Shown here piece after piece: positions 35,239 to 63,046 of a stretch of DNA of 64,000 nt (positions within the stretch are counted from its first letter, which is position 1; each line of letters starts with the position of its first letter). This DNA comes from Actinomycetes bacterium. GTDB taxonomy: Bacteria > Actinomycetota > Acidimicrobiia > Acidimicrobiales > JABEUL01. The position numbers and the translations under genes were made by a program. The stretch covers positions 2,941 through 66,940 of the forward strand of contig JAJYDO010000001.1 in assembly GCA_021777355.1 (NCBI GenBank), given 5' to 3'. The notes under the pieces are model-generated. The model was given only the letters and a program-made list of their open reading frames with translations, did not search any database and was not told the DNA's origin.

Positions 35239-35865
35239 ATGGAAATCTCGAAGTTTGAGACAAAACAAGAGGAATTCTGGGCAGGAATTTCTGGCGACGA
35301 GTACATTGAGCGCAACTGTGACTCGACAACCATTGCCGCTAACATGGCTTTATTTTCCGAAGTGCTTAGAAGAACGAAGGAAGTAAATTCTGTCTTAGAG
35401 CTTGGATCGAATATAGGATTGAACCTTCATGCAATTCACAACCTTCTGCCCCATATTGATATTTCTGCAGTCGAGATCAATGAAAAGGCGGTTGCAAGGT
35501 TAAGAAAAGAGGATTGGATTGACATTCATCATGAGTCAATTCTCACTTTTTCTCCTGAAAGGAAATGGGACTTTGTTTTTACGAAAGGAGTCCTAATACA
35601 TTTGAACCCAGATACACTTCCAAGAGTTTATGACCTTTTCCATGCGGCAAGTTCTCGCTATATTATGGTAAGCGAATATTACAGTCCACAACCAGTAGAA
35701 ATTACATATCGGGGGCATAAAGATAGGCTGTTTAAGCGCGATTTCGCAGGAGAGATACTGGACCATGCGCCTGGCTTTGAACTAGTAGATTACGGGTTTA
35801 CATATCACAGGGATCGGCACTTTCCGCAAGATGATATCAACTGGTTCTTGTTAGAGAAAATATAA
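35239..35865 (+). CDS. Small SAM-dependent methyltransferase resembling the pseudaminic-acid-biosynthesis-associated methylase family
   Basis: EEFWAGISGDEYIERN at the N-terminus and VLELGSNIGLNL as motif I. It is ~200 aa and sits 475 nt upstream of pseB. The family assignment is from memory. Confidence 0.6.
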   Translation: MEISKFETKQEEFWAGISGDEYIERNCDSTTIAANMALFSEVLRRTKEVNSVLELGSNIGLNLHAIHNLLPHIDISAVEINEKAVARLRKEDWIDIHHESILTFSPERKWDFVFTKGVLIHLNPDTLPRVYDLFHAASSRYIMVSEYYSPQPVEITYRGHKDRLFKRDFAGEILDHAPGFELVDYGFTYHRDRHFPQDDINWFLLEKI

Positions 35866-36340
35866 GAGCCTATTTGGCACGAAAAGTACTTCTCGATTTC
35901 AAAAAAGGATCTCTTTAAGGAATGGTGACGCTGGAAGCGGGAGATTCTTTAAACGATTTAGTGCGCAGTTTTGATGGCGAAGGAAATTTCTACTCTAATT
36001 TGGCACTGGTTTGAACCAGGTCAAATTAGAATTGATATTCGAATATTTTCCCACCGCAAATGCCTTTAGAGGATTCGGAAATCATTGTAGTATTTCCCCA
36101 GAAAGCACTACAGTCAAAGCAATCTGGCAACTAGCTGGTTACAGAGAGTAACAAGGAAATGCGAGGCAAAGGTGTAAAGTTTTAGTAAAGTCACTAGAAT
36201 TGCGAATATTTATGTAATGTGGAGATACAGGACTACGGGTCCAGGTATCATGTAATAATTATGATTTGTTTGTTAATAATGTATGCCTTGCATACTCGTA
36301 ATATTGAGTCTGACCTCCCTAATTTTAAGGTCAGTCAATT

Positions 36341-37324
36341 ATGAATAGTTATGAGCAGCTTGACGACCAGGTAATCTTATTAACAGGAGGTACTGGATCT
36401 TTTGGACGCGCATTTGTTAAAGAAGTACTGCAAAAATCAAGCGCGACTATTCGCATATTCAGCCGAGATGAGTTGAAACAGCATGATTTGAGCCTAGAGT
36501 TAGAAAATTATAATGACCGGATCCGTTTTTTTCTAGGTGACGTTAGAGATAAGCCAAGGCTAACACGTGCTGCTAAAGGCGCTAATATTCTGATTCACGC
36601 CGCTGCCTTGAAGCAAGTTCCGGCTTGTGAGTACAACCCATTTGAGGCAGTCCAAACAAATGTAGTTGGTGCGGAAAATGTGGTCGACGCTGCCATAGAT
36701 GCTCAAGTAGCTAAAGTAATTGCCGTTTCTACCGATAAGGCGGTAAATCCAGTAAATCTTTATGGCGCCACTAAGTTATGTGCCGAAAAAATCATAGTTC
36801 AGGGAAATGCTTACGCATCTCGAAGCGAAACAAAACTGTCGTGCGTAAGATATGGCAATGTGGTTGGATCAAGAGGTTCCGTTTTACCTTTGTTTCTTAA
36901 GCAGAAAGCATCGGGGTGCTTTACAATTACAGATACTCGTATGACTAGGTTCTGGATTACATTACCCCAAGCAGTTGAACTTGTTATTACAGCGCTAAGT
37001 ATAATGAAGGGAGGAGAAATATTCATTCCTAAAATCCCATCAATGAAAGTTACTGATTTGGCAAGGGCAATATCTCCGGATGCCAAACAAAATGTGGTTG
37101 GCATCCGTGCCGGCGAGAAACTTCATGAGATCCTTTTGACTTCTGAAGAGAGCCGCCATGCGGTGGAACGTGATGGGATGTACGTTATTTTTCCAGAGCA
37201 TCCGTGGTGGGGAGTTGATCGATCAGATGAAAATGATATTGCACTCCCGGAGGGAATGGTGTATTCAAGCGATTCAAACGAACACTGGTTGACAAGCAAA
37301 GAAATTGAAACCCTGATTCGATGA
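36341..37324 (+). CDS. pseB: UDP-N-acetylglucosamine 4,6-dehydratase (inverting)
   Basis: ILLTGGTGSFGRAF, IFSRDELKQ and YGATKLCAEK (YxxxK). It is 327 aa and the first gene of the pse operon. Confidence 0.88.
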   Translation: MNSYEQLDDQVILLTGGTGSFGRAFVKEVLQKSSATIRIFSRDELKQHDLSLELENYNDRIRFFLGDVRDKPRLTRAAKGANILIHAAALKQVPACEYNPFEAVQTNVVGAENVVDAAIDAQVAKVIAVSTDKAVNPVNLYGATKLCAEKIIVQGNAYASRSETKLSCVRYGNVVGSRGSVLPLFLKQKASGCFTITDTRMTRFWITLPQAVELVITALSIMKGGEIFIPKIPSMKVTDLARAISPDAKQNVVGIRAGEKLHEILLTSEESRHAVERDGMYVIFPEHPWWGVDRSDENDIALPEGMVYSSDSNEHWLTSKEIETLIR

Positions 37325-38415
37325 TTCCTTATGGCCATCAATCAATTAATGATGACGACATTGCAGCTGTCACGCAGATCCTAAAAGGTGACTGGCTTAC
37401 TCAAGGACCAGCAGTTGAGGAATTCGAAGAAGCCTTATGCAGCTACACTGACGCTAAGTTTGCCGTTGTTTTTTCAAGTGGAACGGCGGCATTACATGCT
37501 GCTTGTGCGGTCGCCGGATTTGGGCCAGGAAACAGTATCTATACTTCGGCATTAACCTTTTCAGCCAGTGCGGCATGCGCCCTTTACGTTGGAGCTGAAC
37601 CTCGCTTTCTTGATATTTCTCCGGACACATTGAATATGGATTTAAGTCTTCTGCCTCCGAATGCCGATGGCCTAATTGCAGTTCATTATGCAGGGCTCCC
37701 TATTGACTTTGCAAAAATGCCCTATCGACCTGGAATAATAATTGAAGATGCATCTCATGCACTCGGCGCCATTGGGAAGAATGGCCCTATTGGTAATTGT
37801 GCGGATTCTGATATGTGTACTTTTTCCTTCCATCCCGTGAAAGCTATCACCACCGGCGAAGGTGGCGCGGTGACTACTAATTCAAAGGCTCTGGCTAATT
37901 CACTCAGAACTTTTAGAAGTCACGGAATTGTTCATAAACAAGAACAAGGTAATTGGTTCTATGAAGTCGATTCAATCGGTTTTAATTACCGTTTAACTGA
38001 TATTCAATCGGCTCTTGGCCTAAGCCAGCTAAAGAGATTGGATCGATTTATCGAAAGGCGCAACGAAATTGCGAGTCGCTATAGAGAGTTACTCCAAGAT
38101 CTTCAGGTGACTTGCCCCCCAAGTGCTCCAGTAGGCTCAACTCACGCCTATCATCTATTCCCGGTTAGGGTTAAAAATCGGCGAGCGATATTTGACTATT
38201 TGAGAAATGCTGGAATCGGTGCTCAAGTGCATTATATTCCTCTTTACAAGCATCCTTTATATGCTCGCACAGGAAGCCAGTTCCAGTTTCCTTCAACCGA
38301 AACAGTTTATGGCGAGCTACTCTCGTTGCCTATTTTTCCAGATTTAACAGATGCAGATCAGGATATAGTGATTGAAGTCCTTGGCAAAGCTTTGAATGAG
38401 GTACCTGATAAATGA
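37321..38415 (+). CDS. pseC: UDP-4-amino-4,6-dideoxy-N-acetyl-beta-L-altrosamine transaminase (DegT family)
   Basis: MIPYGHQSINDDDI...LTQGP N-terminus. The PLP-lysine block is FSFHPVKAITTGEGG, with the Lys codon at 37840-37842. ATGA overlap with pseB. Confidence 0.85.
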   Translation: MIPYGHQSINDDDIAAVTQILKGDWLTQGPAVEEFEEALCSYTDAKFAVVFSSGTAALHAACAVAGFGPGNSIYTSALTFSASAACALYVGAEPRFLDISPDTLNMDLSLLPPNADGLIAVHYAGLPIDFAKMPYRPGIIIEDASHALGAIGKNGPIGNCADSDMCTFSFHPVKAITTGEGGAVTTNSKALANSLRTFRSHGIVHKQEQGNWFYEVDSIGFNYRLTDIQSALGLSQLKRLDRFIERRNEIASRYRELLQDLQVTCPPSAPVGSTHAYHLFPVRVKNRRAIFDYLRNAGIGAQVHYIPLYKHPLYARTGSQFQFPSTETVYGELLSLPIFPDLTDADQDIVIEVLGKALNEVPDK

Positions 38416-38894
38416 ATGAGTTAACCCTTCATCTAGCTTCTGCAAAAGACGCCAGTTTAATATTCGGTATACGCAATCTGCCTGAGAGTATCAAGTTTAG
38501 TGGAACCGGGCAGCCCGTGACAGAAAACGAGCACTTTGTTTGGTTTGAAAATTTACTGAAGGATAAAGGTCGCAGACTTTGGATTTTAAACGACGGCATT
38601 GATGATATTGGATTCGTCAGAGTTGATTTGCTAGATGAGGCCGTGGGTCAGATTGGCCGGGTAAGTATTGGAATCAAAAGAGAGAGTCGCGGACATAATT
38701 ATGCGAGTCAAGCCCTCGGATTACTAACTTTGCAGCTTAAGGATATGCGTGACTTTTACGTTGAGAGATTAAGAGCTTTTGTGCATTTCGACAACATAGC
38801 TTCAGTAAAGACATTTAGAAAAGCCGGTTATGCAGAAGTTAACACTGAAAATCCATTTGTTACTTTCGAGATCCTATTGAGTAATGAGAGTTAA
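38412..38894 (+). CDS. pseH: GNAT N-acetyltransferase, PseH-like
   Basis: IFGIRNLPESIKF, EHFVWFENLL and NIASVKTFRKAGY. ATGA overlap with pseC, and the position between pseC and pseG is as expected. Confidence 0.75.
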   Translation: MNELTLHLASAKDASLIFGIRNLPESIKFSGTGQPVTENEHFVWFENLLKDKGRRLWILNDGIDDIGFVRVDLLDEAVGQIGRVSIGIKRESRGHNYASQALGLLTLQLKDMRDFYVERLRAFVHFDNIASVKTFRKAGYAEVNTENPFVTFEILLSNES

Positions 38895-39897
38895 TACGAC
38901 CAAGTCTGGGACACTATGGCTTAGAACAGGTTCATCACCCGATATTGGTTTAGGGCATCTTATGCGTACTTTAGCAATTGCAGAAAGCGCGCATAGGCAA
39001 AACCTGAGATGCTGCTTTGTAATTGACAACAATACCGATGTGGATCGTATACGAGCCGTTGCTGACAACGTTCAAACTGTATATTCAGTTAATGATGATA
39101 TGTGGACATCCTCAATATCGTCGGGAGATTTTGTCGTGTTTGACGGTTATGAATATAGTGGAGACAATTTTCGCCACGCTAATGATGCCGAAGCAGTCGT
39201 AGCTTGCTTTGACGATTTCGGGATCTCTTTCCCTGCCGGGGTTCTAGTTATTGATATTAGCGAAGCTGGTGGAGAAGGTCCCGTGGACAAGGATCATCAA
39301 AACTCTAGACATTCTAATCGGCTTGTAGGCCCTCATTACGCTCCGATTCGGAGCGAATTTTTTCCGTTCCGCCGCCACAGGGAAGATCCAATTGAAACAA
39401 TCGTAATAAGCCTCGGTGGTTCCGACATGGGAACGCTCACTCAGGAAGTTACACGTTCAATTCTCCATTTGAAAGATAAATATAACGTAGTAGCGATAAT
39501 CAACCAAGACAAGCTTGCCGGAAAGGAAGCAGACTGGCCAACTGATGTGGAAGTTATTTACTCGCCCCCTAGAGTCGGAGACATTTTTGATCGAGCCGAT
39601 TTAGGAATATGCACTGCAAGCACTACTGCTCTAGAAATGGCCTTCATGGGAATTCCAACATTACACTTGCAAGCGACTAATAATCAGAAGGCGATGGCCA
39701 ACATGCTTACAAAATATCAAATATCATATTCACTTGGAACCAATTTGGGAGATCTAGAACAAATTATTTACATGATGAATGAAAGTGCGATTCGATCGTC
39801 ATTGAGTAGGCGAGCATTGGAGACCATTGATGGAATGGGAGCCGAGAGGATATTAAAAACAATGGTCGAAGCACACCCTAATGTAAGGCGGGCATAG
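38884..39897 (+). CDS. pseG: UDP-2,4-diacetamido-2,4,6-trideoxy-beta-L-altropyranose hydrolase, PseG-like
   Basis: RTGSSPDIGLGHLMRTLAIAE N-terminus, SLGGSD, and a GT28-C-like fold length. It overlaps pseH by 11 nt. Confidence 0.78.
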   Translation: MRVNTTKSGTLWLRTGSSPDIGLGHLMRTLAIAESAHRQNLRCCFVIDNNTDVDRIRAVADNVQTVYSVNDDMWTSSISSGDFVVFDGYEYSGDNFRHANDAEAVVACFDDFGISFPAGVLVIDISEAGGEGPVDKDHQNSRHSNRLVGPHYAPIRSEFFPFRRHREDPIETIVISLGGSDMGTLTQEVTRSILHLKDKYNVVAIINQDKLAGKEADWPTDVEVIYSPPRVGDIFDRADLGICTASTTALEMAFMGIPTLHLQATNNQKAMANMLTKYQISYSLGTNLGDLEQIIYMMNESAIRSSLSRRALETIDGMGAERILKTMVEAHPNVRRA

Positions 39898-39900
39898 AAA

Positions 39901-40980
39901 TTGTCAAATGGAGATTTAATTTCAACGTGCGTGAAGATTGGAAGCAGCCGGGTTGGACTCGGTGAGGAGGCCTACATTATTGCCGAGCTTTCTGGAAATC
40001 ATCTTGGAAAACTTGACAATGCTATTGAGTTACTTCGCGCAGCTAAAAATGCTCGGGCTAACGCGGCCAAACTCCAGACATACACAGCTGACTCCATGAC
40101 AATAGATTCAGATGCTGATATATTTAAGCTACCCGAAACTTCGCTTTGGAAAGGTTACACTTACTACCAGCTATACAAAGAAGCTGCAACACCGGCTGAG
40201 TGGCTTCCAAAACTTAAAAAAGAAGCAGTTCGGCTGGGAATAGATCTTATTTCATCTCCGTTCGACAATGAGGCCGTTCGTATTCTAGATGAACTTGACT
40301 TTCCTGCTCTGAAGATTGCTTCGTTTGAAGTGGTTGACCTTAAATTGATTCAGAGTGCGGCATCCACCGGACGGCCAGTAATTATTTCAACAGGTATGGC
40401 CACGCTGGCAGAAGTTGATGCTGCCGTAAATGCCGCAAGATCAGTAGGCGACGGGGGAATAATTTTACTTTATGCCAGCAGCGCATACCCTGCGCCCACT
40501 TCCGACATGGCATTAAGGACTATCCCGCATATGATTAAGACGTGGAATTTGCCGGTTGGGTTGTCAGATCACACACAAGGAATACATGCGGCAGTCGCGG
40601 CAGTCGCTCTTGGTGCCAATGTTATTGAAAAACACTTGACTCTGCGACGATCAGATGGCGGGCCTGATGCAGAGTTTTCGATGGAGCCAGACGAATTTAA
40701 AAAGCTGGTGTCGTCAGTGCGTGAAGTCGAAAGCACATTAACGCGAGTTCGATATGGACCATCTCCTGGCGAAATAGTAAGCCTCAACTTTCGTCGCTCG
40801 CTTTTCGTCGTAAAGGATATGGAAGCAGGAGAAAAATTTAGCGAACAGAATGTACGCTCGATTCGGCCTGGTTACGGATTGCCGCCCAAGGAATGGAACC
40901 AAATTGAGGGCAGAGTTGCACGTGGTGCAATAAAGCGGGGAACCCCTCTTCAGTGGGATTTAGTAGGTGATATTGGTTAA
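39901..40980 (+). CDS. pseI: Pseudaminic acid synthase
   Basis: YIIAELSGNHLGKLDNAIELLRAAKNARANAAKLQTYTADSMT carries the QTY variant typical of PseI. A C-terminal SAF domain is present. The start is TTG 39901 or GTG 39931. Confidence 0.85.
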   Translation: MSNGDLISTCVKIGSSRVGLGEEAYIIAELSGNHLGKLDNAIELLRAAKNARANAAKLQTYTADSMTIDSDADIFKLPETSLWKGYTYYQLYKEAATPAEWLPKLKKEAVRLGIDLISSPFDNEAVRILDELDFPALKIASFEVVDLKLIQSAASTGRPVIISTGMATLAEVDAAVNAARSVGDGGIILLYASSAYPAPTSDMALRTIPHMIKTWNLPVGLSDHTQGIHAAVAAVALGANVIEKHLTLRRSDGGPDAEFSMEPDEFKKLVSSVREVESTLTRVRYGPSPGEIVSLNFRRSLFVVKDMEAGEKFSEQNVRSIRPGYGLPPKEWNQIEGRVARGAIKRGTPLQWDLVGDIG

Positions 40981-42805
40981 TCCTTCTCCTGAATCGTCAC
41001 CCGCTGGACTAATAATTGCTGCTGGAAGTGTGCTTCGACTAGATGAACTAGACCAGGTAATTGCAAATATTCCTGACACTTTAGAGATTATTGGATGGTG
41101 TGCATATCTTTCCCAAACGACAAGCTCGTGGGCGGAAAATACATTTTCTGTGAAATGCTTGGATTTAAATGCAATTTCAGGTGAAATTGATGAAAGCATT
41201 TGTGCAAAAGCAAGATCAGCAATGGATCTTTTTGGCAGTCAAGATGACCCAAAGCTCGAGGCTTTCGTCTTAGAGAAGCTCTATTCCGAAGCCGAAGAAT
41301 TAGTTCTGGCAACCGAAATGGTAAAACTGGTGAGAAGCCAGTTGAATTCGAAGGACCATAAGATTTATTTCCTGGGTAATGATAATAATGGATCCACCGC
41401 AGTAAAAACTGAGCTAGAAGATTTCTGCAATCTTGAGATACTTGAGCTTCCACCTAAATCTTCGCGTGACTTTAGGACTCGAGTAAATAAATATGTCCAG
41501 GGTCTCAGACTGGAAGGCAGAATCAGTCATGCAGTACCCGACCTGATTGAAAGAACCGATAATGAGTGGCGTTTTAGGACCTCATTGCCGCGGCAGTCAT
41601 TTTGGACGGAAAAGAAAAGTTATTATTCATTACCCAAGGGAGAGATATGTTTGCTGTCCTCCTACGCAAATAATTCAAGATCTATCTTAAACTTAAGTTC
41701 TTTATTTCCTCGCAATACTCACTGGATAGTGACTACTCTGTCAGCAAGACGAGCATTACCAAAGTCAGCCAAATGGTCTTGGCTTTGGGCGCATGCTAAC
41801 AAATCGCATCAGTGGTCCTGGCCTTTGCTGCCAACAGACAAGACTGAGATAAGTGCTCCTAAGTCAGACAGTGGACTAGGGAATGGTTGGCCAGCCAACT
41901 CCCAAACGTTATCACGCTGGGAAGAAATCGACAGGGCGTTGACCGCTCGAATGATGTCATGTTGGGACAATTATTTAGAGAAATATAGCCCAAGACTAGT
42001 TGTCGTGGCGAACCAATGGGACATTGAGGGAGCTTTTGCGCTCCGAGCAAAAGAGATGGGTATTGCGGTACTGCAAGTTTTTCATGGGGCAACAGGAGGA
42101 CATTTGTACCGTGAACACAAAGTAATTGGAGACTGCATGGTTATTCCTGGAAAGTACTGGGCCGACACGCTTCCAGTCGTTTCACGGCATAAAGCTCTCG
42201 TTGTAGGATCGACTCCTGACATCGCTAATAGCACCCCAGATGTTCCACGGCGCTTGACATTTTTCTCTACATTTATTTCGAACCAATCTCGCATGGTGGC
42301 AGAAGAAGAATATAAGTCTATGGTCAAGGCAATCTGTCATATTCGGAGCGTTTCAGGCTGGTTAGTGGTAATGCGCCCTCATCAACTTGAAAACCCTTCT
42401 CTATTTTTAGAATATTGGCGAAATAGCACCACCGATGATCCTCCGATTATACTTTCAGCACATAAAGAAACTCTCATTGAAGCAGTCAAGAGTACCGGAG
42501 TTGCACTTACGTTCCCTTCTTCAATACTTCTTGCTTGTGCATCAGGTGGAGTGCGTGCAACGATACCTGGGTGGATACCTTTCGAGTGGCGTGAGGGTGT
42601 AGAGTCAGTGTCTAATGGAAAATTGGCCGAATTTGCTTCTAATCCCGAAGATATAGGAAAGATTCTGGAGGCGCAGATTCTGGCTGCCGAACATGATGGC
42701 CCAATTGATTCTGGCGATTCTGACTTACTGGCAAGATTTGGAGTTGGACACGACGAATTCCGTGACTGGATATCGTCGACAACTGCAGGATCTAAAAGCA
42801 AGTAA
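40967..42805 (+). CDS. 612-aa orphan protein, possible GT-B-like nonulosonic-acid transferase
   Basis: The ORF overlaps the pseI 3' end by 14 nt. It has no TM or signal sequence. The C-terminal half has alternating beta/alpha character, with VFHGATGG and VVMRPHQLENP blocks that recall the HP motif of capsule/sialyl-type transferases. This is a weak inference. Confidence 0.65.
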   Translation: MILVNPSPESSPAGLIIAAGSVLRLDELDQVIANIPDTLEIIGWCAYLSQTTSSWAENTFSVKCLDLNAISGEIDESICAKARSAMDLFGSQDDPKLEAFVLEKLYSEAEELVLATEMVKLVRSQLNSKDHKIYFLGNDNNGSTAVKTELEDFCNLEILELPPKSSRDFRTRVNKYVQGLRLEGRISHAVPDLIERTDNEWRFRTSLPRQSFWTEKKSYYSLPKGEICLLSSYANNSRSILNLSSLFPRNTHWIVTTLSARRALPKSAKWSWLWAHANKSHQWSWPLLPTDKTEISAPKSDSGLGNGWPANSQTLSRWEEIDRALTARMMSCWDNYLEKYSPRLVVVANQWDIEGAFALRAKEMGIAVLQVFHGATGGHLYREHKVIGDCMVIPGKYWADTLPVVSRHKALVVGSTPDIANSTPDVPRRLTFFSTFISNQSRMVAEEEYKSMVKAICHIRSVSGWLVVMRPHQLENPSLFLEYWRNSTTDDPPIILSAHKETLIEAVKSTGVALTFPSSILLACASGGVRATIPGWIPFEWREGVESVSNGKLAEFASNPEDIGKILEAQILAAEHDGPIDSGDSDLLARFGVGHDEFRDWISSTTAGSKSK

Positions 42806-42935
42806 TTGTGAACAACTTTGAATTAATTTTGTATCATTTGTGACTTGTCAAAGGTGCACCAGGACCAAGAACCAGGAAGTCAGATCTAAAATAGAGTGAG
42901 TATTTAGACTGAAGAAAAGGGCAAAGTATTTAAGC

Positions 42936-43169
42936 ATGACTAGTTTCGAGTTCCAAGATAGTTTACTGAGTGAAAGTAATTTTGATTCCTGCATACTTCT
43001 CAACTTTCGATGTCACGCTATAAGTCTTTTTGCACGACAATCAAAGATAATCATTCAACCAGATGGAGAGTTGACGTTTTCACGGTTTGAAATTCAAAAA
43101 GCACAAGGTGTCCTGCAAGAACGAATTTTCCTAGAGTCGAAGCGTAAAATTCGGGGAGTTAGATTTTGA
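42936..43169 (+). CDS. Hypothetical small protein (77 aa)
   Basis: It is the only ORF in the 360-nt spacer, and it overlaps the TTG start of the next gene by 4 nt. It has no recognisable motif. Confidence 0.3.
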   Translation: MTSFEFQDSLLSESNFDSCILLNFRCHAISLFARQSKIIIQPDGELTFSRFEIQKAQGVLQERIFLESKRKIRGVRF

Positions 43170-44308
43170 GCGGATGGAAAATTCCGTTGATTACCCCTGA
43201 AGTAGATGATCAGGATGCACGCGCTGTCTACGACGTAGTCTTAGCAGGGGATGTGGCCGTCGGTCGCGAGCAGGAGCATTTTGAGAGAATCGTTACCGAT
43301 ATCACGGGGGCTAAATTTGGGGTTTCTTTATCAAGCGGTACCGCAGCTCTACATTTGGCGCTTCTCGCGTTGGATGTGGGCCCAGGAGATGAAGTTATAG
43401 TCCCCGATTTGACATATATTGCCTCAGCCAACCCGGTCCGTTACGTAGGTGCGGCACCTGTTCTTGTCGACATCAAACCAGATGACGGAAATGTGGACGT
43501 AGACATTCTTAACGATTTTATAGAGGAGCGGGTCAGAAGAAACTATATTCTCCCAAAAGCAATTATTGCCGTTCATGTTTTAGGAGAACCATGTGACATG
43601 GAGAAGTTATTGGCTATATCGAAAAATTACGGAATTCCCATTATCGAAGATGCCGCCCAATCTTTTGGGGCAACTTACGGGGCAGGCAAATTAGCTTATA
43701 AAGCGACTGGGTCCATTGGAAAGTTCGGAGTGCTTTCTTTCAGTGGAAACAACATAGTTACCACAGGCGGAGGTGGCATGTTGCTGACTAATGACGGAGC
43801 TCTTGCTTCAAAGGTAAGACATCTCTCCACCCAAGGCAAGCTCGCCAACAATAACTTTGACCACAATGTAGTAGGCTATAACTACCGACTTTCCAATATT
43901 GCTGCCACACTTGGAATTGTCCAGGCAAAGAAATTATCTGCTTTTATCAAAGCTAAACGCTTAATTTACTACCGTTATAGAGAGAATCTGGAACTCATAA
44001 GTAACATTAGGATGATCGCCATAAACCCAATCAACAATGGATCCTGTTGGCTCTCGACAGCCGTATTTCAAGATAAAAAAACTCGAATTAAAGTCGAGGC
44101 AAGCTTGAGATCTAATGGCATTGAGTGCAGTACACTCTGGACGCCAATCCACAAGCAAGCTCCATATATTGAAGCACCCTTTGTAGGTGCAGGCGTTTCC
44201 GTCGACTTGGCAGAAAGATCTCTAAGTCTGCCGAGTTCCACTTCCCTGAGAGAATCGGAGCAGAAGGAAGTTATCGACACAATTATTTCGACGCTTGTTC
44301 ACATTTAG
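43166..44308 (+). CDS. DegT/DnrJ/EryC1-family sugar aminotransferase-like protein lacking the conserved PLP lysine
   Basis: LSSGTAALHLALLAL, GDEVIVPDLTYIASAN and IIEDAAQSFGA. The lysine block reads LSFSGNNIVTTGGGGM, with AAC (Asn) at 43751-43753 where the family has Lys. Confidence 0.85.
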   Translation: MSGWKIPLITPEVDDQDARAVYDVVLAGDVAVGREQEHFERIVTDITGAKFGVSLSSGTAALHLALLALDVGPGDEVIVPDLTYIASANPVRYVGAAPVLVDIKPDDGNVDVDILNDFIEERVRRNYILPKAIIAVHVLGEPCDMEKLLAISKNYGIPIIEDAAQSFGATYGAGKLAYKATGSIGKFGVLSFSGNNIVTTGGGGMLLTNDGALASKVRHLSTQGKLANNNFDHNVVGYNYRLSNIAATLGIVQAKKLSAFIKAKRLIYYRYRENLELISNIRMIAINPINNGSCWLSTAVFQDKKTRIKVEASLRSNGIECSTLWTPIHKQAPYIEAPFVGAGVSVDLAERSLSLPSSTSLRESEQKEVIDTIISTLVHI

Positions 44309-44812
44309 CGGCTAAACACCATGGTTGTTATTTGACGGCATAAATAGTAGAAAATCTAGTCATAGTTTCTGAAAAACAGCTATTTCGGATGAAGAATTCA
44401 AAAGCTACCCAACTATTTAGCCGAGTGTTGTGCGAGCTTTAACTTGATGTTTTTCACCAAAAGTGTTTTTCGTAGTCAAATAGATTGATTCGAATTTCAA
44501 TTAACTAACTCGCAGGCATGAGCTAATCAGATATGTCATCTTTGTAGCAAATCGGGCTAATTTTCGACTTTTTGCAGCATTGGCCCTCCGTCTGAAAATT
44601 TGACATAAATTGGTACCAAGGTTCGAAACGGGTATCAACCACTAAAGTGCAATGACTACCAGGCAAAATTTTGGCTATTCGACCAATTTATGAATATATG
44701 CACATAAATATTTAGAAATATCTTTTAAGGTCGATATAGTATTTGGGTTATGCAATTGGCCTGAATAGGCCAAGTCCTGATTTAAAGATGGTAAAGATAG
44801 GACAATATCAAA

Positions 44813-46870
44813 TTGAAGCAAAGAGAAAACCGCGGAGAGAAACAAGGTAGTTTTCGGTTTCATTTATTTCTTATTTTGACATCAGTCTCACTGATCTTAT
44901 CCGGTTGCATCGGAACTGTTGGCGGGCTAACTTGGAATAATAATCCATTTTCGCTAGTAATAACTGTATCTAACCCTACATCTACTAATTTGTCGGACTA
45001 TCCTGTCCAGGTAAAAATAACCGGACAAAACTTTACCTCATTAAGCGGTGCTTATGGCGCTCCGGAATTAGAAGTTGCAGACTTTTTAACCGCCAAACAG
45101 GCGAACTATTGGGTTCAAGAGTGGAACGTTATTTCTGAAGTAGGCATTGTCTGGATAAAATGCCCGGAAATTGAAGGAAATGGAGATGCATATTTTCTTA
45201 TCGCCAAAGCTGCCAGCGAAGCAAATTACGGAAGCGGGCAAAACGTATTTCCGTTTTTTGAAGATGGAACAAATCCAGCTCTTTGGAGCAATACTGCCGG
45301 TGGCGGACCCTCTGTCACTACAGGTATGCAAAGTTACATCAATATAACAAGTAATTCGACCGTAGTTGACGACGGGAACTACAACGCAAATCCTGCCATG
45401 GTAAAACTTCCAAATGGAGATATCTTGCTCACATATGTCAGTGGAACAATGCATGTGAGTGTTCCATACGTGATGTTAGTCGAAAGTAAAGATAATGGCC
45501 GGACTTGGAGCACTCCAAGAATGATTTTCGACACAAGCGGAATGGACCCGGTAATTTTCGAAATTCCATCCGGAGGATTGCAGTTGTGTTTTGACAAGAG
45601 CCAGTCAGGAACCGGGTTTATTGGCATGGCATGTATGACTTCTAACGACAATGGAGTTACCTGGACACTTCCACAATTTATGACCTCAAACCCGTACGAA
45701 CTTTTTGCAGTGGACCAGGTTGTGACGGTTGGATCCACCTTATACGCAAGTGCATATGGACAACTTAGCTCACCAACCGGCCCTGTTAGCGTGAACTTGT
45801 GGGTCTCTTATGATTTTGGAAATACCTGGTCAATACTCTCAAATATTGTAACATCACCTTCAGATCCCACTTGCAACGAATCTGGACTTGCATATCTTGG
45901 AGCTCAAGAATTTGTTGTGGTTCTCAGATCCGGATCAAACTCTACTACCTATGAAAGGTTTAGCAACGATATGGGAGTTACGTGGGGGCCGTTAATTGAC
46001 ATTGGAAATCAAGTTGGAGTATTGCAATATCCCACACTTCAACACTTAGGCAACAATCTCGTTCTCACTGCTCGTGAAGCTTATGAACGGGTGCCTGGAA
46101 CCTATAGTACTTCCACTCGTGAAACGGCAATGTTTATCTCCAGTGACGAAGCCAAGAGTTTCAGTGACCCAACCCTAGTAGATAGATACACGGGCCAACA
46201 AATTGATGGGGGCTACGGACAGTTGATTATTGTCAACAATAATCAAGGCTTGTTAACCTATTATGCGAATCTTCACACGCTACGACAGCCCTCAATTCAA
46301 TTCGCTACAATTAATTTTGGCCAATATCCCCTTGCGGATCAGGGTGTAGGAATTTCTCAGTACTTCGAAAATGGTTTCGCATCCCGGTCATTTTCACCGA
46401 TAAACGGACCATACCAGGTGTTCGCAAGCTCAATTGGCTTTGACGCAGTTAACGGAAATCAATTGGAACTTAGTTTATTGGGTGAAAGCCAGAATAATTT
46501 GAACACAGCCGTAACAATTGGCACATTATTGACACCCTCGGGGAGTGTATATCCATCGAACAGCATCGAATTTTCAAATGGATCTCAGCTAGGATCAACA
46601 CTTGCAGCTTGGCAGCCTTCGGTCAATTACGATTTTTCGGTTACTGTAAATCCTAGTTCAGATTCGATCATGGCGCAGGTTTACAACAGCGACTTAGTTC
46701 CCGAAGGAACATCTTTTTCGGGTGCAATTCAATCAGGAACTAATGGATCGCTAACTGGGATAACTCTAGGAAGCGGAACTGCAGCAGTCGATACTTTGAG
46801 CGACGTTCCTTGGATCTTCGTCACACCTTATGCTCAATCGCCGCCCCAGGTTGCGATCTCTCCTGATTAA
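44813..46870 (+). CDS. Predicted lipoprotein with DUF2341-like N-domain and BNR/Asp-box (sialidase-like) beta-propeller
   Basis: The signal peptide has the lipobox LSGC, with the Cys32 codon at 44906-44908. There are four SxDxGxTW Asp-boxes (SKDNGRTWS, SNDNGVTWT, SYDFGNTWS, SNDMGVTWG) and one degenerate box (SSDEAKSFS). YPVQVKITG...VWIKCPEI resembles DUF2341. Confidence 0.8.
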   Translation: MKQRENRGEKQGSFRFHLFLILTSVSLILSGCIGTVGGLTWNNNPFSLVITVSNPTSTNLSDYPVQVKITGQNFTSLSGAYGAPELEVADFLTAKQANYWVQEWNVISEVGIVWIKCPEIEGNGDAYFLIAKAASEANYGSGQNVFPFFEDGTNPALWSNTAGGGPSVTTGMQSYINITSNSTVVDDGNYNANPAMVKLPNGDILLTYVSGTMHVSVPYVMLVESKDNGRTWSTPRMIFDTSGMDPVIFEIPSGGLQLCFDKSQSGTGFIGMACMTSNDNGVTWTLPQFMTSNPYELFAVDQVVTVGSTLYASAYGQLSSPTGPVSVNLWVSYDFGNTWSILSNIVTSPSDPTCNESGLAYLGAQEFVVVLRSGSNSTTYERFSNDMGVTWGPLIDIGNQVGVLQYPTLQHLGNNLVLTAREAYERVPGTYSTSTRETAMFISSDEAKSFSDPTLVDRYTGQQIDGGYGQLIIVNNNQGLLTYYANLHTLRQPSIQFATINFGQYPLADQGVGISQYFENGFASRSFSPINGPYQVFASSIGFDAVNGNQLELSLLGESQNNLNTAVTIGTLLTPSGSVYPSNSIEFSNGSQLGSTLAAWQPSVNYDFSVTVNPSSDSIMAQVYNSDLVPEGTSFSGAIQSGTNGSLTGITLGSGTAAVDTLSDVPWIFVTPYAQSPPQVAISPD

Positions 46871-47476
46871 TGTTCGGCTGGCTGTATAAAAAAGTACTAT
46901 AGGTAATTAGTTGCTAGGAATTCTTTTCCCGGTAACTTATTAAAATTAAACCGAATCGGAATTCTAGCTTTGCTTCATCAACGAATTTGTGTTGCCAACT
47001 TCTATACCCGATGGCACTTGGCTTGGCGTTGACAATGCTCTTTTTGTAAAATTTTGTACTTAAAAAGTTAAGAAATGCACCTAGAACTAGTCTTTAGAGA
47101 AGCGCAGAATCCTCTATTTGAATTTAACCACTATTGACTAGTTTATGCTTGAGTAAAATTTGTCCCTCATAAATGGGGTGAACTGCAAGATTGAGTTTTT
47201 TTGGCTGCTTCTGCATCTCGTTTGGCAAGGCTGCATCATTTTGCATCTAGTTTTTAGGGGCTTTCGGCGCGTCATCTGTTTTAGCTCTTTAGCAAGGAAC
47301 TCTCAATTCAAATAATTTTCTCTTGGAACTTTGTCCATTTACTCTGGTTTCGCTAACTTTTTGGGTCTAATCGATTTGAGTATATCGAAATTAAAAATAT
47401 TCTAAAATTAAAACTTGGCATATTTGTTGCTATATGCCACATTGCGCGTTCTGAATTTGGCGGATCAAATTATAAT

Positions 47477-48277
47477 TTGATGATAAACTACCCTGGCATG
47501 GACACTGTAAATCAAGGCGAAAGAATTATCGCTGTTTTGCAGGCCCGAATGACTTCAACAAGACTTCCCGGGAAAGTCCTAATGCCCTTAGCTGGAGCGC
47601 CACTGTTATCTCGAGTCATTGAGCGCGTTTCGCGAATTTCTGGTTTAGACGGGATTGTCGTAGCTATTCCCAGTGGAGATAAGCAACTTCCGATAGTGGA
47701 ACTTGTGGCGGGCATTCCAGAAGTTGACCTAGTTTCCGGATCGGAAGACGATGTTCTTGACCGCACTTTATATGCTGCAACCTCGGCAGGCGCTACTGCC
47801 ATTGTTAGAATTACCACAGATTGCCCATTGATAGATCCAGAAGTAAGTAGTGCTGTACTGGGCGCATTTCGCAAGCTGGGGATTTCATATGCCAGAACCG
47901 CTATTTCACATGGTTATCCTATGGGATTTGATACTGAGGTGATTTCAGTTGACGCTCTGAAAATTGCTGCAAGCGAGTCCAGTGACCCGTACGAACGAGA
48001 GCATGTTACCCCTTTTATATGGAGACAACCTGAGCGGTTTGAGTCAATTGTTTTATCATGCATGCCAGATCGAAGACACTGGCGGCTTACAGTAGATACA
48101 CCTGAAGATTATCGACTCGTATCTACAGTTTACGACGAACTAGCTAACGTTTCGCCTAGCTTTGGGATGAGAGAACTAGATGCTCTTTTTAAAAGACGAC
48201 CCGAACTTCTTGAACTGAACGCTGGCACCGCATCAACTCCATACATTGGTTTACCCTCTTCATATGCATCCTCGTAA
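47477..48277 (+). CDS. SpsF-type cytidylyltransferase (CTP_transf_3 family)
   Basis: IIAVLQARMTSTRLPGKVL, VRITTDCPLIDP, YPMGFDTEV, REHVTPFI and RLTVDTPEDY are blocks typical of SpsF/FlmC-like nucleotide-sugar cytidylyltransferases. The start is uncertain (TTG 47477 or ATG 47498). Confidence 0.82.
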   Translation: MMINYPGMDTVNQGERIIAVLQARMTSTRLPGKVLMPLAGAPLLSRVIERVSRISGLDGIVVAIPSGDKQLPIVELVAGIPEVDLVSGSEDDVLDRTLYAATSAGATAIVRITTDCPLIDPEVSSAVLGAFRKLGISYARTAISHGYPMGFDTEVISVDALKIAASESSDPYEREHVTPFIWRQPERFESIVLSCMPDRRHWRLTVDTPEDYRLVSTVYDELANVSPSFGMRELDALFKRRPELLELNAGTASTPYIGLPSSYASS

Positions 48278-48829
48278 TTAGGTCGAACTGGCATCCGCTG
48301 TTAAGTTCAACTAGAAATAATTTAAAGGGTTTGTGATCTAACTTAAACCGGCATTCTCAAATAGAGCTACTGGGTCGTCCTATGATTGGCAAAACGGGCA
48401 AATTATCATTGTTGATCTCTCATGGGCCATAATCAATGACTTGGTTTCATATCGGTCTGAAGGGTAAATGTGGGATGTTCAAGAAATGATACGCAGGATG
48501 CATTTGATATTTAGCTTTTACCCAACAATTTTTTGGATGGAGAGTAATTTGAAAATGCGGAGTTTTGAATTTTGCCAGTGAATTTCAAGGAGTTTACAAA
48601 GTCAAATCTTTTCAACCTAAGACTATTTTCATTCTGGCCGATAAGCGGTAATACTTGGCCTCATTACGACTTATTCCTAAGGTAAGAAGGGTGGATCTGG
48701 AGTTTCTTAGGCATTTTAGGAGTGGCAATACTTTTTGCTCTTTTGGGTTTAAAGAACACAAATTGGCTATTTTGTCAACTAGCATGAGGATAGTTATTGG
48801 AAATACAAGCAACGGAAAGTTATTTTTAA

Positions 48830-49933
48830 ATGCCGGACCAGGTTAACTTGGATAAGACTTCAAGGATTAAAATACTCTACGGAGTAGTCGCAGATGAGCA
48901 CAATATGAATGCTCAAAGCCAAAATGCAAGAGAAATCGGGTTGAGGTTAAACAGAGATGAATTTGAAATTAGCTACTTTGCAACTAATCCCGATCCAAAA
49001 CTACTGCAAAGAGAGAACGTAAAAATATTGATGCTTCCAAGGAGGCTCAAAACTATTACCTTTGTTAGGCGATATCTTCGGCATGACTACGACGTACTTA
49101 TTTATCCACCTTTCGATCACGTAGCTACAATAATAGGAAAACTGAAATGGTTAAGGAGACCTTCAAAAGTTGTTTATCCTATAGAAGGTACTCTCGAACA
49201 AGTTGAGTCTTCGTGGGCTGCCAAAAATCTTCTAGGTCTGATCGAGAGTGCAGACTTGAGGGTATCGCTAAGCAAGTTCATTGCGGACCAATTCATGTCA
49301 AAAAAAGGGTTAAGTTCAGTTGTTATACCAATTGGAGTAAACGTTGAAGATTTTGGGAATGTAGATAGATCCAATAGACATGGTCCGGTCAAGATTATAT
49401 CTATCTCTTCATTTATTCCACGGAAGAACTTACACTTCATTTTGGAAGTAGCCAAATCGGTGGCTCAAGATAAAGCCGAATTTCTAATTGTCGGCGCACC
49501 TCATGGGGATGCTACATATCTTGAATCGATTAAGAGGCAGGCAGACGAGCAAGGTATCCAAAACATTAGATTTTTGGGGCATAAAAACCGAGAGGAAGTA
49601 TCAGCACTGCTGAAAGAAGCTGATTTCCACATCCTTACGAGCCACATGGAAGGAACCCCGAAAGTAATTTTGGAAGCTGCTGCCTCCGGGCTTCCCTCAG
49701 TTATATTCGATGACTATGGAGCTCCTTCAGTAATTCATTGTAAGACTGGGTTTCAGGTAAAAAGTGACCAAGATTTCATAGACAGTGTAACTAAACTCGT
49801 CGATGACAAAGAGTTGCGTTTATCAATGGGCCAAAATGCATTTGGAATCATTAGAGAATTCTCATGGGACGATATTTCTATTTCATGGGAAAAAGAACTA
49901 AAGAAATTGTTTGGCATTAAATCACACTTATAG
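48830..49933 (+). CDS. Glycosyltransferase family 4 (GT-B)
   Basis: EX7E motif EGTPKVILEAAASGLPSVI. 367 aa. Confidence 0.82.
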   Translation: MPDQVNLDKTSRIKILYGVVADEHNMNAQSQNAREIGLRLNRDEFEISYFATNPDPKLLQRENVKILMLPRRLKTITFVRRYLRHDYDVLIYPPFDHVATIIGKLKWLRRPSKVVYPIEGTLEQVESSWAAKNLLGLIESADLRVSLSKFIADQFMSKKGLSSVVIPIGVNVEDFGNVDRSNRHGPVKIISISSFIPRKNLHFILEVAKSVAQDKAEFLIVGAPHGDATYLESIKRQADEQGIQNIRFLGHKNREEVSALLKEADFHILTSHMEGTPKVILEAAASGLPSVIFDDYGAPSVIHCKTGFQVKSDQDFIDSVTKLVDDKELRLSMGQNAFGIIREFSWDDISISWEKELKKLFGIKSHL

Positions 49934-61201: not shown

Positions 61202-63046
61202 TCACTTATACACTTCAAAACTAGTGTGAAATTCAATAGGTAATTTTCCAATGCACGTCAATGAAATAGTCAGAGCATCCTCAACGGAGTTGAAATCTTT
61301 TGCCAAGCTACACAGTTGTGAATTACTTTCAATAATGTTAATGTCTCCATGAACGCTGCTCTTAAATTCCAAATTTACTTGAAATTCTCCAATTACTAGG
61401 AGCATTTCTGCCTTACTCCCATTTGAGGATTTAGAATCTTCGGACTTGAAACCCAAAAACCGAACCAGAGAGCTGAAATGAAATATTAACTCGACTTTAT
61501 GTTCGTTTTCAGACCTTTCTATTTCCGAAGAATTCGTTTTCTTTAAAAATGTCGAAAATACTAAGTCCTTAATTTTCAAACCTGAACTTTTCACTTCGAC
61601 ATGCCTTTTATGACAAGGGGAGTCCTCTAAAAAAATATAACCGTTATGCGACGCCTCTACTACTACGGTATCTCCCAGGTCTTCAGCTTTAATCAATTTA
61701 GGTTCGGCTCTTCTCCCTGCCCTAAATGCTCCCCAAATCTCTGTTTGGTCACAATTGTCAATAACGACTGTGTTGTGCGCTCTGGTACTTCTCTCATATG
61801 CCCTTGTAGCACCCGGCTCATAGGTCGATACGCCTGTGTCGACTAAAAAAGGAAGAGTTGATATATAGGCTTGTACTGCCAAAGTGTCGGAGTGTGCGTG
61901 TGCAGGAAGAGCAGGAGGGCAGGGAAGTCCGGCATCCATCAATACTGTGAAAAGAGATCCCGTATTGGCTACAAAATAACCTGACGATTCTAAAAATGCA
62001 GTTTTTCCAAAGGGTGAAATTTCCAATAATTCCAATAATTTAGTGTCCGATGGCAAACAGTCATTTACATTCCACCACTTCCCGTCAGGAGCCAGCATTT
62101 TTGACAGCCATACTTTCATCCGAGCAATAGAGTCTTCAAGCCACGGAGAGGATTCGGCTATTGCTTTGGCTACTTCGCGCGAAGAGTCCTTAGCTGCTAA
62201 TTCAAGAATATTTCTAATATCTTCTAAGTCAGTAAGTACTTGAACATGGTAGGACGATGATCTTTCATAGTGTCCTCCGTCACCCAATATCTGGCGGCCT
62301 GTCTCTACTCCCAATTGCCACACGGTTCGTTTTAGATGCTTCTCGTCTCCAAAAAGAATAGATAAAACAATAAGAGCTTTCATGTTTTTTATTAAATGGT
62401 TGCCTCTGACTTCTCTTTCTTTAAAAACCTTGAGCCACCTAAATGCCGCTCTAAGCTCTTCAATTACCTCATCTTTGTAAGGCGAATCTTTTAAAGTTCC
62501 GTGAATCATCATTGAACCCAGTACAAAGGCGCGCAAAGAGACTACATAAGGTGACCAGGGAGTTCCTTTTCCCAAACAAGTATGTTTTCGATATGACTTC
62601 CAGTATTTTTCAAATATTTCATCGAAGTGCTCGTCGTTTAAAAACCAAAGCCATTCCATATAAAAAAGGTGATACTTATATAAAAGTGTTGCACTGGAAA
62701 GATCCCAATTATCACTACTTTCTCCCCGTTGAACTAATATCTGGAAATTCTCGCCAACTTGGTCGACGATACCATTCTCCAGTAAATTCAAAAGCTTATT
62801 TCTCTCAACAGATTGCCGATGAGCTTCTTGGTCGATTGGGATAAATGATGGAAAAATATTAATAATTGATTTAGTTGAGCTACCTGACTTTAGCCAGAAG
62901 CTAAGAATTTGGCTGGGAAGAATCGAAGCGATCTTTCGACCTCCTCTTAGCGCCACACGCCAAATCAAATCAGACACGGGAATTTGTCTAGCAGCTGATA
63001 TCGTCTTTTTGACTCTTTCAAGTGGTGTTTCTTTGGAATTTCCCAT
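61202..63046 (-). CDS. Heparinase II/III-family (alginate-lyase-like toroid plus Hepar_II_III C-domain) protein, no signal peptide
   Basis: GGHYERSSSYH, PAHAHSDTLAV and RSTRAHNTVVIDNCDQ are typical Hepar_II_III blocks. The N-terminus MGNSKETPLERVKK is not a signal peptide. It lies 22 nt upstream of the oxidoreductase gene. Confidence 0.82.
   Translation of the reverse strand: MGNSKETPLERVKKTISAARQIPVSDLIWRVALRGGRKIASILPSQILSFWLKSGSSTKSIINIFPSFIPIDQEAHRQSVERNKLLNLLENGIVDQVGENFQILVQRGESSDNWDLSSATLLYKYHLFYMEWLWFLNDEHFDEIFEKYWKSYRKHTCLGKGTPWSPYVVSLRAFVLGSMMIHGTLKDSPYKDEVIEELRAAFRWLKVFKEREVRGNHLIKNMKALIVLSILFGDEKHLKRTVWQLGVETGRQILGDGGHYERSSSYHVQVLTDLEDIRNILELAAKDSSREVAKAIAESSPWLEDSIARMKVWLSKMLAPDGKWWNVNDCLPSDTKLLELLEISPFGKTAFLESSGYFVANTGSLFTVLMDAGLPCPPALPAHAHSDTLAVQAYISTLPFLVDTGVSTYEPGATRAYERSTRAHNTVVIDNCDQTEIWGAFRAGRRAEPKLIKAEDLGDTVVVEASHNGYIFLEDSPCHKRHVEVKSSGLKIKDLVFSTFLKKTNSSEIERSENEHKVELIFHFSSLVRFLGFKSEDSKSSNGSKAEMLLVIGEFQVNLEFKSSVHGDINIIESNSQLCSLAKDFNSVEDALTISLTCIGKLPIEFHTSFEVYK

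Follow-up and report, generated by a model that had tools for sequence, protein, structure and literature searches.

In a 64,000-nucleotide (nt) stretch of contig JAJYDO010000001.1 (assembly GCA_021777355.1), assigned to an Actinomycetes bacterium of the Acidimicrobiales and referred to here as the window, we analysed the forward-strand gene at 44813–46870, which encodes a predicted lipoprotein with a sialidase-type β-propeller, named P0001. We propose that P0001 may be an extracytoplasmic ulosonic-acid glycosidase acting on the cell's own polysaccharide of the pseudaminic acid (Pse) type, a reading to which we give a probability of roughly 0.45. Taken together, a Glu–Tyr/Arg site of the kind found in sialidases, a predicted lipid anchor and the context of the locus make a self-directed trimming, remodelling or release of this glycan the best reading.

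The region was sequenced from mine-drainage metagenomes, and contigs of three mine-drainage runs were identical across it, so that no within-population variation was seen. The same gene call is present in the NCBI metagenome-assembled genome GCA_027342685.1 (contig DAHWQP010000154.1) and in a Logan assembly, and an AGGA sequence lies about 10 nt 5' of the start codon. The gene and the domains of its product are arranged as follows.

44813–46870, forward strand: P0001 gene (685 amino acids (aa), TTG start), a lipoprotein made up of a DUF2341 domain, a BNR_2 propeller and a β-sandwich.
44813–44908, forward strand: signal peptide with lipobox LSGC and Cys32 (aa 1–32; regular-expression match; predicted helix at 14–29).
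44951–45322, forward strand: DUF2341 N-terminal β-sandwich (aa 47–170; PF10102, E = 1.1e-8; all-β, with a high predicted local distance difference test score, pLDDT).
45326–46330, forward strand: six-bladed sialidase-type β-propeller (aa ~172–506; from the BNR_2 match, Foldseek, a PDB profile search and Asp-boxes).
46346–46867, forward strand: C-terminal β-sandwich (aa 512–685; all-β, pLDDT mostly >85; conserved across full-length members).

The 685-aa reading frame and the spacers of 504 nt (44309–44812) and 606 nt (46871–47476) on its two sides agree with a first-pass annotation made from the DNA alone, which had also described a lipoprotein signal, a DUF2341-like N-domain, a six-bladed propeller with four canonical Asp-boxes and one degenerate box, and a Ser/Gly/Asn-rich C-terminal β-region, and had suggested a BNR_2 profile search and a structure prediction. 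Nearly all of this description was borne out. The lipobox LSGC (aa 29–32) is preceded by RENRGEKQGSFR and FHLFLILTSVSLIL, in keeping with the lipoprotein pattern of a positively charged n-region, a hydrophobic h-region and then a lipobox of the form [LVI][ASTVI][GAS]C; P0001 is predicted to be an extracytoplasmic lipoprotein and a substrate of SPase II, and L-x-[AG]-C also occurs in its Terriglobia homologs. The DUF2341 match reached 35.9 bits against a gathering threshold of 23.4, and that of BNR_2 (PF13088) 60.3 bits against a cutoff of 31.4 (E = 2.5e-16). Strict SxDxGxTW Asp-boxes begin at aa 225, 277, 332 and 384, and the degenerate SSDEAKSF at 443, positions that agree with the propeller of the structural model; at least one strict box was present in 9 of 20,000 shuffles of the P0001 sequence. 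The C-terminal region is β-structured and rich in Ser (16%) and Gly (10%), whereas Asn (7.2%) is not above its level in the whole protein, and this part of the description did not hold. Searches of the protein against NCBIfam and PHROGs returned no match of any kind.

An AlphaFold2 (AF2) run on six sequences gave a pLDDT of 57 and was replaced by a run on the 63-sequence alignment A2, which reached a pLDDT of 88.5 and a predicted template modelling score (pTM) of 0.83. The resulting model comprises a signal helix, a β-sandwich at 47–170, the propeller at ~172–506 and a second β-sandwich at 512–684, and it concurs with Foldseek and with a profile search of PDB sequences on the sialidase-like fold that the first-pass annotation had proposed. 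The top Foldseek matches in the PDB were 5hx0, the T. rangeli sialidase 1mz6, the GH181 enzyme Am1547 (8hls), PA2794 (2w38/3h6j), BT1020, NEU1 (8du5) and 7lbu, with a probability of 1.00 for 5hx0, the T. rangeli sialidase, Am1547, 2w38, NEU1 and 7lbu, and the profile search ranked 5hx0 (4e-33), 7lbu (6e-29), 6mnj (2e-26) and 2w38 (7e-26). A Foldseek search of BFVD added no more than viral proteins of a generic sialidase or LamG-like kind. Two other families with Asp-boxes, GH93 arabinanase and GH74 xyloglucanase, were weighed and set aside, their scores being weak (E ~2e-4) and the sialidase-type Glu, Arg and Tyr being kept in the family.

Active-site residues were mapped through residue-level hidden Markov model (HMM) alignments anchored on PG0352, the catalytic residues of which are Arg-194, Arg-398, Arg-460, Asp-219, Glu-382 and Tyr-488 (PMC10553830). 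With a SEQRES offset of 17, the aligned residues R177 and D202 become Arg-194 and Asp-219, which makes this anchor self-consistent. The mapping points to the following positions in P0001.

45386–45388, forward strand: Ala192, where GH33 sialidases have their first (RIP) arginine (aligned to Arg-194 of 8feb (PG0352) and to YRIP of 7lbu).
45452–45454, forward strand: His214, in a G-T-x-H motif of the blade-1 loop that holds the acid/base Asp in GH33 (aligned to the His of PA2794 and 5hx0).
45878–45880, forward strand: Glu356, candidate partner of the nucleophile Tyr (57/57 sequences; aligned to the Glu of 7lbu, 6mnj and 2w38).
45926–45928, forward strand: Arg372, equivalent of the second triad arginine (57/57; aligned to the Arg of 7lbu, 6mnj, 2w38 and 5hx0).
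46073–46075, forward strand: Arg421, a conserved extra arginine at the end of strand B of blade 5 (51/56; strand from the AF2 model).
46118–46120, forward strand: Arg436, equivalent of the third triad arginine (from spacing; aligned to the Arg of 2w38 and, within one residue, of 7lbu).
46214–46216, forward strand: Tyr468, in a G-Y motif, candidate catalytic nucleophile (54/57; aligned to the GY Tyr of 7lbu, 6mnj, 2w38 and 5hx0).

By alignment, the propeller keeps the sialidase-type Glu356/Tyr468 pair, nearly invariant counterparts of the partner Glu and Tyr nucleophile of GH33, together with Arg372 and Arg436 and/or Arg421. Glu356 precedes R372 by 16 residues, the same distance as from Glu-382 to Arg-398 in PG0352, and R436, which is invariant among full-length members, follows R372 by 64 residues and precedes Y468 by 32 (62 and 28 in PG0352). 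E, R and Y occur jointly in 53 of 55 relatives, and 43 of those 53 also carry the His. An almost invariant E/R/Y core favours an enzyme over a protein that only binds, and its persistence over such deep divergence indicates, as far as alignments can be read, a catalytically active, retaining glycosidase for an α-keto-acid sugar. Reading a retaining glycosidase from a Glu–Tyr pair and carboxylate-binding arginines follows the established mechanism of GH33.

Other parts of the site depart from this pattern. The first-pass annotation could not find the FRIP arginine motif of classical exo-sialidases, and we likewise found no RIP motif at the start of the propeller, so that P0001 does not have the complete arginine triad of GH33; with G, A or S in the Ala192 column across the family, the loss is a family trait. 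His214, present in 49 of 53 sequences, aligns exactly with the His of PA2794 (ATEHV) and of 5hx0 (GTNHV) and lies two residues before the column of PG0352 Asp-219, which is Ser216 in P0001 (loop GTMHVSVP). Judged by alignment within the blade-1 loop, no acid/base Asp was found there. GH33 exo-α-sialidases such as PG0352, the P. acnes enzyme 7LBU and that of M. viridifaciens share with P0001 the fold, the Asp-boxes, the Glu/Tyr pair, the second and third arginines and their spacings, whereas P0001 lacks the first (RIP) arginine, has its acid/base Asp replaced or displaced by His, and is encoded in a biosynthetic rather than a catabolic context. Because of the missing first Arg and acid/base Asp, we do not file P0001 as a canonical GH33 sialidase.

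By these alignments P0001 belongs to a RIP-less branch of the sialidase superfamily together with PA2794 of P. aeruginosa (2W38/3H6J) and Dfer_1899 of Dyadobacter fermentans (5HX0). PA2794 is likewise a six-bladed Asp-box propeller (Foldseek E = 1e-14) with no Arg at the RIP position, and in the alignment it keeps the Glu, two Arg and the GY tyrosine; its sequence relatedness to P0001 is nevertheless low, it has no DUF2341 domain, and where P0001 has its β-sandwich it has an immunoglobulin-like trimerisation domain. Xu et al. in 2009 (J Mol Biol 386:828) reportedly described PA2794 as devoid of the first Arg and the acid/base Asp and proposed a His as acid/base, and a Phe was reportedly proposed to select for Pse. 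F129 of the PA2794 chain falls on F298 of P0001, in a loop region where the alignment is uncertain; the position is F in P0022 and Y in P0024, two of the relatives described below. PA2794 is not known to be encoded in a Pse locus. Dfer_1899 is the best structural match of P0001 (TM 0.74 on target, root-mean-square deviation (rmsd) 3.7 Å) as well as its best profile match, and with P0001 it has in common the lack of RIP at the start (HAAFP), the GTNH motif as well as E, R and GY. Unlike P0001, it consists of the propeller alone (~400 aa) and has neither of the two sandwiches; as an uncharacterised structural-genomics protein, it allows no transfer of function. Since the active site of P0001 appears to resemble that of PA2794, the only proposed 'pseudaminidase', P0001 is a good candidate for such an activity.

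The second line of evidence is where the gene lies: a Pse pathway is part of the ~47-kb polysaccharide locus of the Wzx/Wzy type that surrounds it. The genes closest to this argument are the following.

35239–40980, forward strand: Pse genes upstream of P0001, encoding a Pse-associated methylase, PseB, PseC, PseH-like, PseG-like and PseI proteins (NCBIfam equivalogs, Pfam).
43166–44308, forward strand: a second DegT-type aminotransferase, LegC-family-like, directly upstream of P0001 (325 bits, cutoff 420).
47477–48277, forward strand: a CTP_transf_3 cytidylyltransferase, candidate CMP-nonulosonate synthetase, directly downstream of P0001 (Pfam).
48830–49933, forward strand: a GT4 glycosyltransferase downstream of P0001 (Pfam; a 37% identical homolog adjoins the gene of the relative P0024).

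The first-pass annotation had placed P0001 next to a pseudaminic acid pathway, and this was upheld: the matches of PseB, PseC, PseI and the Pse-associated methylase exceed their NCBIfam equivalog cutoffs, and those of the PseH-like and PseG-like proteins stay below theirs. A Wzy_C protein, more GT4s and an asparagine synthase are encoded further upstream of the Pse genes, and a WbpM-like dehydratase, a Wzz/kinase, a DUF4012 protein, a flippase, a GFO/ADH fusion and a heparinase II/III-like protein further downstream of P0001. No Wza was found in the window, and no sugar-acid transporter or catabolic genes were seen near P0001. The gene has a GC content of 0.438 and a GC content at third codon positions (GC3) of 0.385, like the neighbouring genes of the polysaccharide locus; with a composition native to the locus, and with long spacers being common locally, a recent horizontal insertion was considered and rejected.

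Several further observations concern this neighbourhood. The cytidylyltransferase matches no PseF equivalog, and its position, together with the LegC-like aminotransferase, on the two sides of P0001 hints at a modified or second nonulosonic-acid branch. The genes from pseB to pseI overlap or abut, unlike the spaced genes downstream, where AT-rich spacers (GC 36–37%) of 360–606 nt (42806–43165, 44309–44812, 46871–47476 and 48278–48829) separate single genes. The stand-alone position with long spacers, which had been reported in the first pass, therefore stands as to the lengths and not as a peculiarity of P0001, since four consecutive genes lie 360–606 nt apart. In the two spacers flanking P0001, no Rfam families were found, and promoter and terminator scans gave results at chance level. 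At 40967–42805 on the forward strand, a 612-aa open reading frame (ORF) shares 14 nt with the end of PseI and is for this reason probably part of the Pse operon; it matched nothing in Pfam, NCBIfam or the PDB sequences and could encode a novel Pse transferase or Pse-modifying enzyme.

In sequence space, the family of P0001 is rare. An indexed search gave only five full-length relatives with 29–33% identity, and a HMMER search of 1.84 billion representatives gave 92 matches below 1e-30, a handful of them full-length and many of them stand-alone propellers; in the same search, DUF2341 repeats were also found in giant surface proteins. P0001 forms a deep branch of its own. Searches with P0001, with alignment A1 and with P0024 showed the non-Terriglobia branches to be singletons, and among GTDB genomes the well-populated clade is that of the Terriglobia (Acidobacteriota). 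A scan of metagenome contigs with the P0001/P0024/P0022 alignment selected DUF2341 motifs and returned only relatives of the DUF2341 domain, so that it has no bearing on linkage.

Outside the Terriglobia, members were found in surface-glycan biosynthesis loci or in phage or phage-like structural modules. The closest full-length match of P0001 is P0024 (32.5% identity, 327 bits), encoded on the 5.9-Mb contig CAWICN010000001.1 of GCA_963834725.1 (locus L022) in a locus that shares seven gene families with the window. The P0024 gene adjoins the divergently oriented GT4 mentioned above, and within 10 kb there are a flippase, a cytidylyltransferase (38% identity) and homologs of PseB (58%) and PseI (57%), in a different gene order. 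Both non-Terriglobia members with long flanks, P0001 and P0024, thus have PseB and PseI within 10 kb. We estimate that chance would place a single-copy gene of a 5-Mb genome within such a distance in ~0.4% of cases per genome, and two independent, rearranged Pse cases are therefore unlikely to be a coincidence, tiny as the sample is. As far as could be found, neither the three-domain lipoprotein architecture nor its recurrent placement beside Pse and polysaccharide genes has been described earlier. In L022, the apparently frameshifted PseB homolog (18537–19557) and a GT4 (15592–16765) are each split over two reading frames, which reflects either indel errors of long reads or pseudogenes.

The gene of P0019 lies between a formyltransferase/PIG-L pair and a flippase, and that of P0138 follows GT2 and GT1-like genes; both are glycan loci whose short contigs carry no nonulosonic acid (NulO) genes. 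P0034 (L042, 10001–11674; 557 aa, a propeller with a C-terminal region) is encoded between phage capsid and tail-tube genes, and has retained H, E, R and Y; it may serve as a glycan depolymerase carried on the virion. P0093, a 713-aa DUF2341-propeller protein (L043, 9393–11534; L044, 1643–3784), is encoded among unannotated genes that all run on one strand; a Gp10_C baseplate domain occurs in this array, which is probably a phage tail module. Such phage or phage-like copies fit an enzyme that acts on bacterial surface glycans. The contexts of P0053 and P0035 were uninformative, and P0022 is encoded on a 4.6-kb contig. P0022 has an extra C-terminal extension of ~200 aa, and the partial 618-aa gene upstream of it (L024, 2–1858) encodes a segment that is similar to the DUF2341 part of P0001 (24% over 133 aa).

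In the Terriglobia, loci with long flanks (L006–L019, e.g. L006 3514–20728) show, in a housekeeping region, a conserved block of DnaE, AccA, the P0001 homolog and sometimes a Ser/Thr kinase with TPR repeats, which continues with the α and β subunits of a 2-oxoacid:ferredoxin oxidoreductase and with AsmA-like, BamD-like, Pal and TolB proteins. The Terriglobia homolog may act on lipopolysaccharide (LPS) or the outer membrane.

In the mechanism that we propose, P0001 would act as a lipid-anchored, retaining glycosidase on an α-keto-acid (ulosonic) sugar, the anchor placing it at the outside of the cytoplasmic membrane or on an outer membrane. Glu356 would activate Tyr468 for attack on the anomeric carbon, the remaining arginines would hold the carboxylate of the sugar, and His214 would serve as the general acid/base. 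The substrate would be a Pse-type residue of the Wzx/Wzy-type polysaccharide that the genes around P0001 produce; the two flanking β-sandwiches would probably bind this polymer, and the cell's own glycan would be trimmed, remodelled or released outside the membrane.

A similar logic is known from KdhAB of Francisella, Helicobacter and Legionella, a membrane-associated, sialidase-like enzyme by which the cell strips an ulosonic acid off its envelope glycan. It acts on 3-deoxy-D-manno-oct-2-ulosonic acid (Kdo) of the LPS core and is anchored through a separate small membrane subunit instead of a lipid, and the parallel to P0001 is one of proposed function. Its sialidase-like KdhA takes Kdo off the LPS of the producing cell itself (PMC3573668). 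In addition, PslG, PelA, BcsZ and AlgL cleave polymers outside the cytoplasm, and their genes stand next to those that build the respective substrates; they differ from P0001 in fold and chemistry, and none of them is known to act on nonulosonic acids. A self-trimming of the Pse-type polysaccharide by P0001 would be analogous to both KdhAB and these exopolysaccharide-operon hydrolases.

A number of points weigh against this proposal. The function of P0001 was read from sequence, model and context, and the active site was placed by sequence and profile alignment only. P0024 does not have the His, owing to a two-residue deletion at that site, and in the wider family R436 is R or K in only 26 of 55 sequences. 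Homologs of the window's Pse and polysaccharide genes were present in 0 of 17 genome-scan loci, nearly all of them from Terriglobia and with flanks of up to 10 kb; only two members combine Pse genes with enough flank, and both are singletons. The first-pass annotation had named homologs unlinked to nonulosonic-acid loci as evidence against its own reading, and the outcome is divided, with P0024 lying near PseB and PseI on one side and the 17 loci on the other. In overall score, PA2794 does not stand nearer to the family than ordinary GH33 sialidases do, the pseudaminidase label of PA2794 itself rests on a crystal structure and docking (10.1101/319418), and pseudaminidase activity was still called unconfirmed in 2026 (PMC13317340).

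Some of these points suit a different substrate. P0001 could be a glycanase for the locus polysaccharide or another envelope glycan that is not Pse-specific, acting on Kdo or a legionaminic-type sugar, or serving as an endo-enzyme for chain length or release. The precedent of a Kdo hydrolase, the link to glycan loci in general (the short contigs of P0019 and P0138 lack NulO genes), the Terriglobia clade near AsmA-like, Pal and TolB envelope genes without Pse genes, and the LegC-like aminotransferase and non-PseF-type cytidylyltransferase around P0001 all speak for it; the recurrence of PseB and PseI within 10 kb of both P0001 and P0024 despite the rearranged order, and the resemblance of the RIP-less, His-bearing site to that of PA2794, speak for Pse, and we regard the non-specific glycanase as unlikely. 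The loss of one triad arginine and of the acid/base Asp, the absence of the His from P0024 and the two lectin-like sandwiches around the propeller would also suit a non-catalytic, glycan-binding or scaffold lipoprotein that aids the export or anchoring of polysaccharide. However, the near-invariance of E356, R372 and Y468 at ~25–30% identity is hard to explain without catalysis, and even the phage copy P0034 keeps E, R and Y, which leaves such a role a small chance.

We consider it just as improbable that P0001 is a scavenging or antagonistic enzyme directed against foreign glycans, be it the nonulosonic-acid surfaces of competitors or environmental polymers, with its position in the Pse locus being incidental. 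The position of the gene as a transcription unit of its own, set off by long spacers on either side, the varied contexts of its relatives and the fact that many BNR_2 proteins are nutrient-acquiring exo-sialidases agree with this view, but the Pse/polysaccharide context recurs at P0024 in a different gene order, the composition of P0001 is that of the locus, genes for sugar-acid transport or catabolism are not seen nearby, and the predicted lipid anchor would keep the protein on the producer's own surface. Least probable, and very much so, is a trans-glycosidase that, like the trypanosomal trans-sialidase, moves Pse residues between glycans outside the cytoplasm. A retaining mechanism would permit such a transfer, and the Foldseek alignments of P0001 to two-domain sialidases (1mz6, 8hls/8axs) extend over >600 columns, with the propeller and the C-terminal lectin-like domain matching those of the T. 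rangeli sialidase 1mz6; yet the TM-scores of this two-domain alignment are low (0.34–0.37, rmsd 16 Å), no specific support was found, and the cytidylyltransferase and glycosyltransferases already provide a cytoplasmic, CMP-dependent transfer. GH181 Amuc_1547 of Akkermansia muciniphila (8HLS/8AXS) resembles P0001 in combining a propeller with a β-sandwich akin to a carbohydrate-binding module (Foldseek E = 6e-15), and differs in being a host-mucin sialidase whose profile match (6e-14) is weaker than those of GH33 enzymes and whose global superposition is poor (rmsd 14 Å).

Three more genes of the window deserve mention. A second NeuB-like ORF (225–1061, forward strand) lies ~39 kb upstream of PseI next to amino-acid biosynthesis genes (IlvB-like, SerA, LeuA) and has 39% identity to the PseI homolog of L022. 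A 934-aa ORF (29111–31915, forward strand) between a methyltransferase and a double GT4 in the polysaccharide locus matches no Pfam family. The heparinase II/III-like protein at the edge of the locus (61202–63046, reverse strand) is a possible second polymer-processing enzyme for the same polysaccharide.

Many bacteria, important pathogens among them, carry Pse on flagella, pili, capsules and LPS, and we know of no enzyme that has been directly shown to cleave its glycosides. A similarly altered sialidase site beside Pse genes in two distantly related genomes offers a concrete, expressible candidate, and P0001 makes the long-open question of which enzymes cleave Pse glycosides directly testable. 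An active P0001 would fill a gap among the tools of Pse glycobiology, for analysis, glycan editing and anti-capsule enzymes. It would also help to clarify the role of PA2794 and Dfer_1899-type proteins, and would extend to nonulosonic acids the rule by which exopolysaccharide loci encode a trimming hydrolase of their own. More doubtful is the broader proposal that P0001 and its relatives form a distinct family of nonulosonic-acid glycosidases of the Pse type, with a two-arginine His/Tyr/Glu site, which bacteria would encode next to the genes for a Pse polysaccharide in order to remodel their own surface and which would have been borrowed by phages as virion-borne depolymerases; if true, this would be the first genetically anchored pseudaminidase family, probably meriting a GH family or subfamily of its own.

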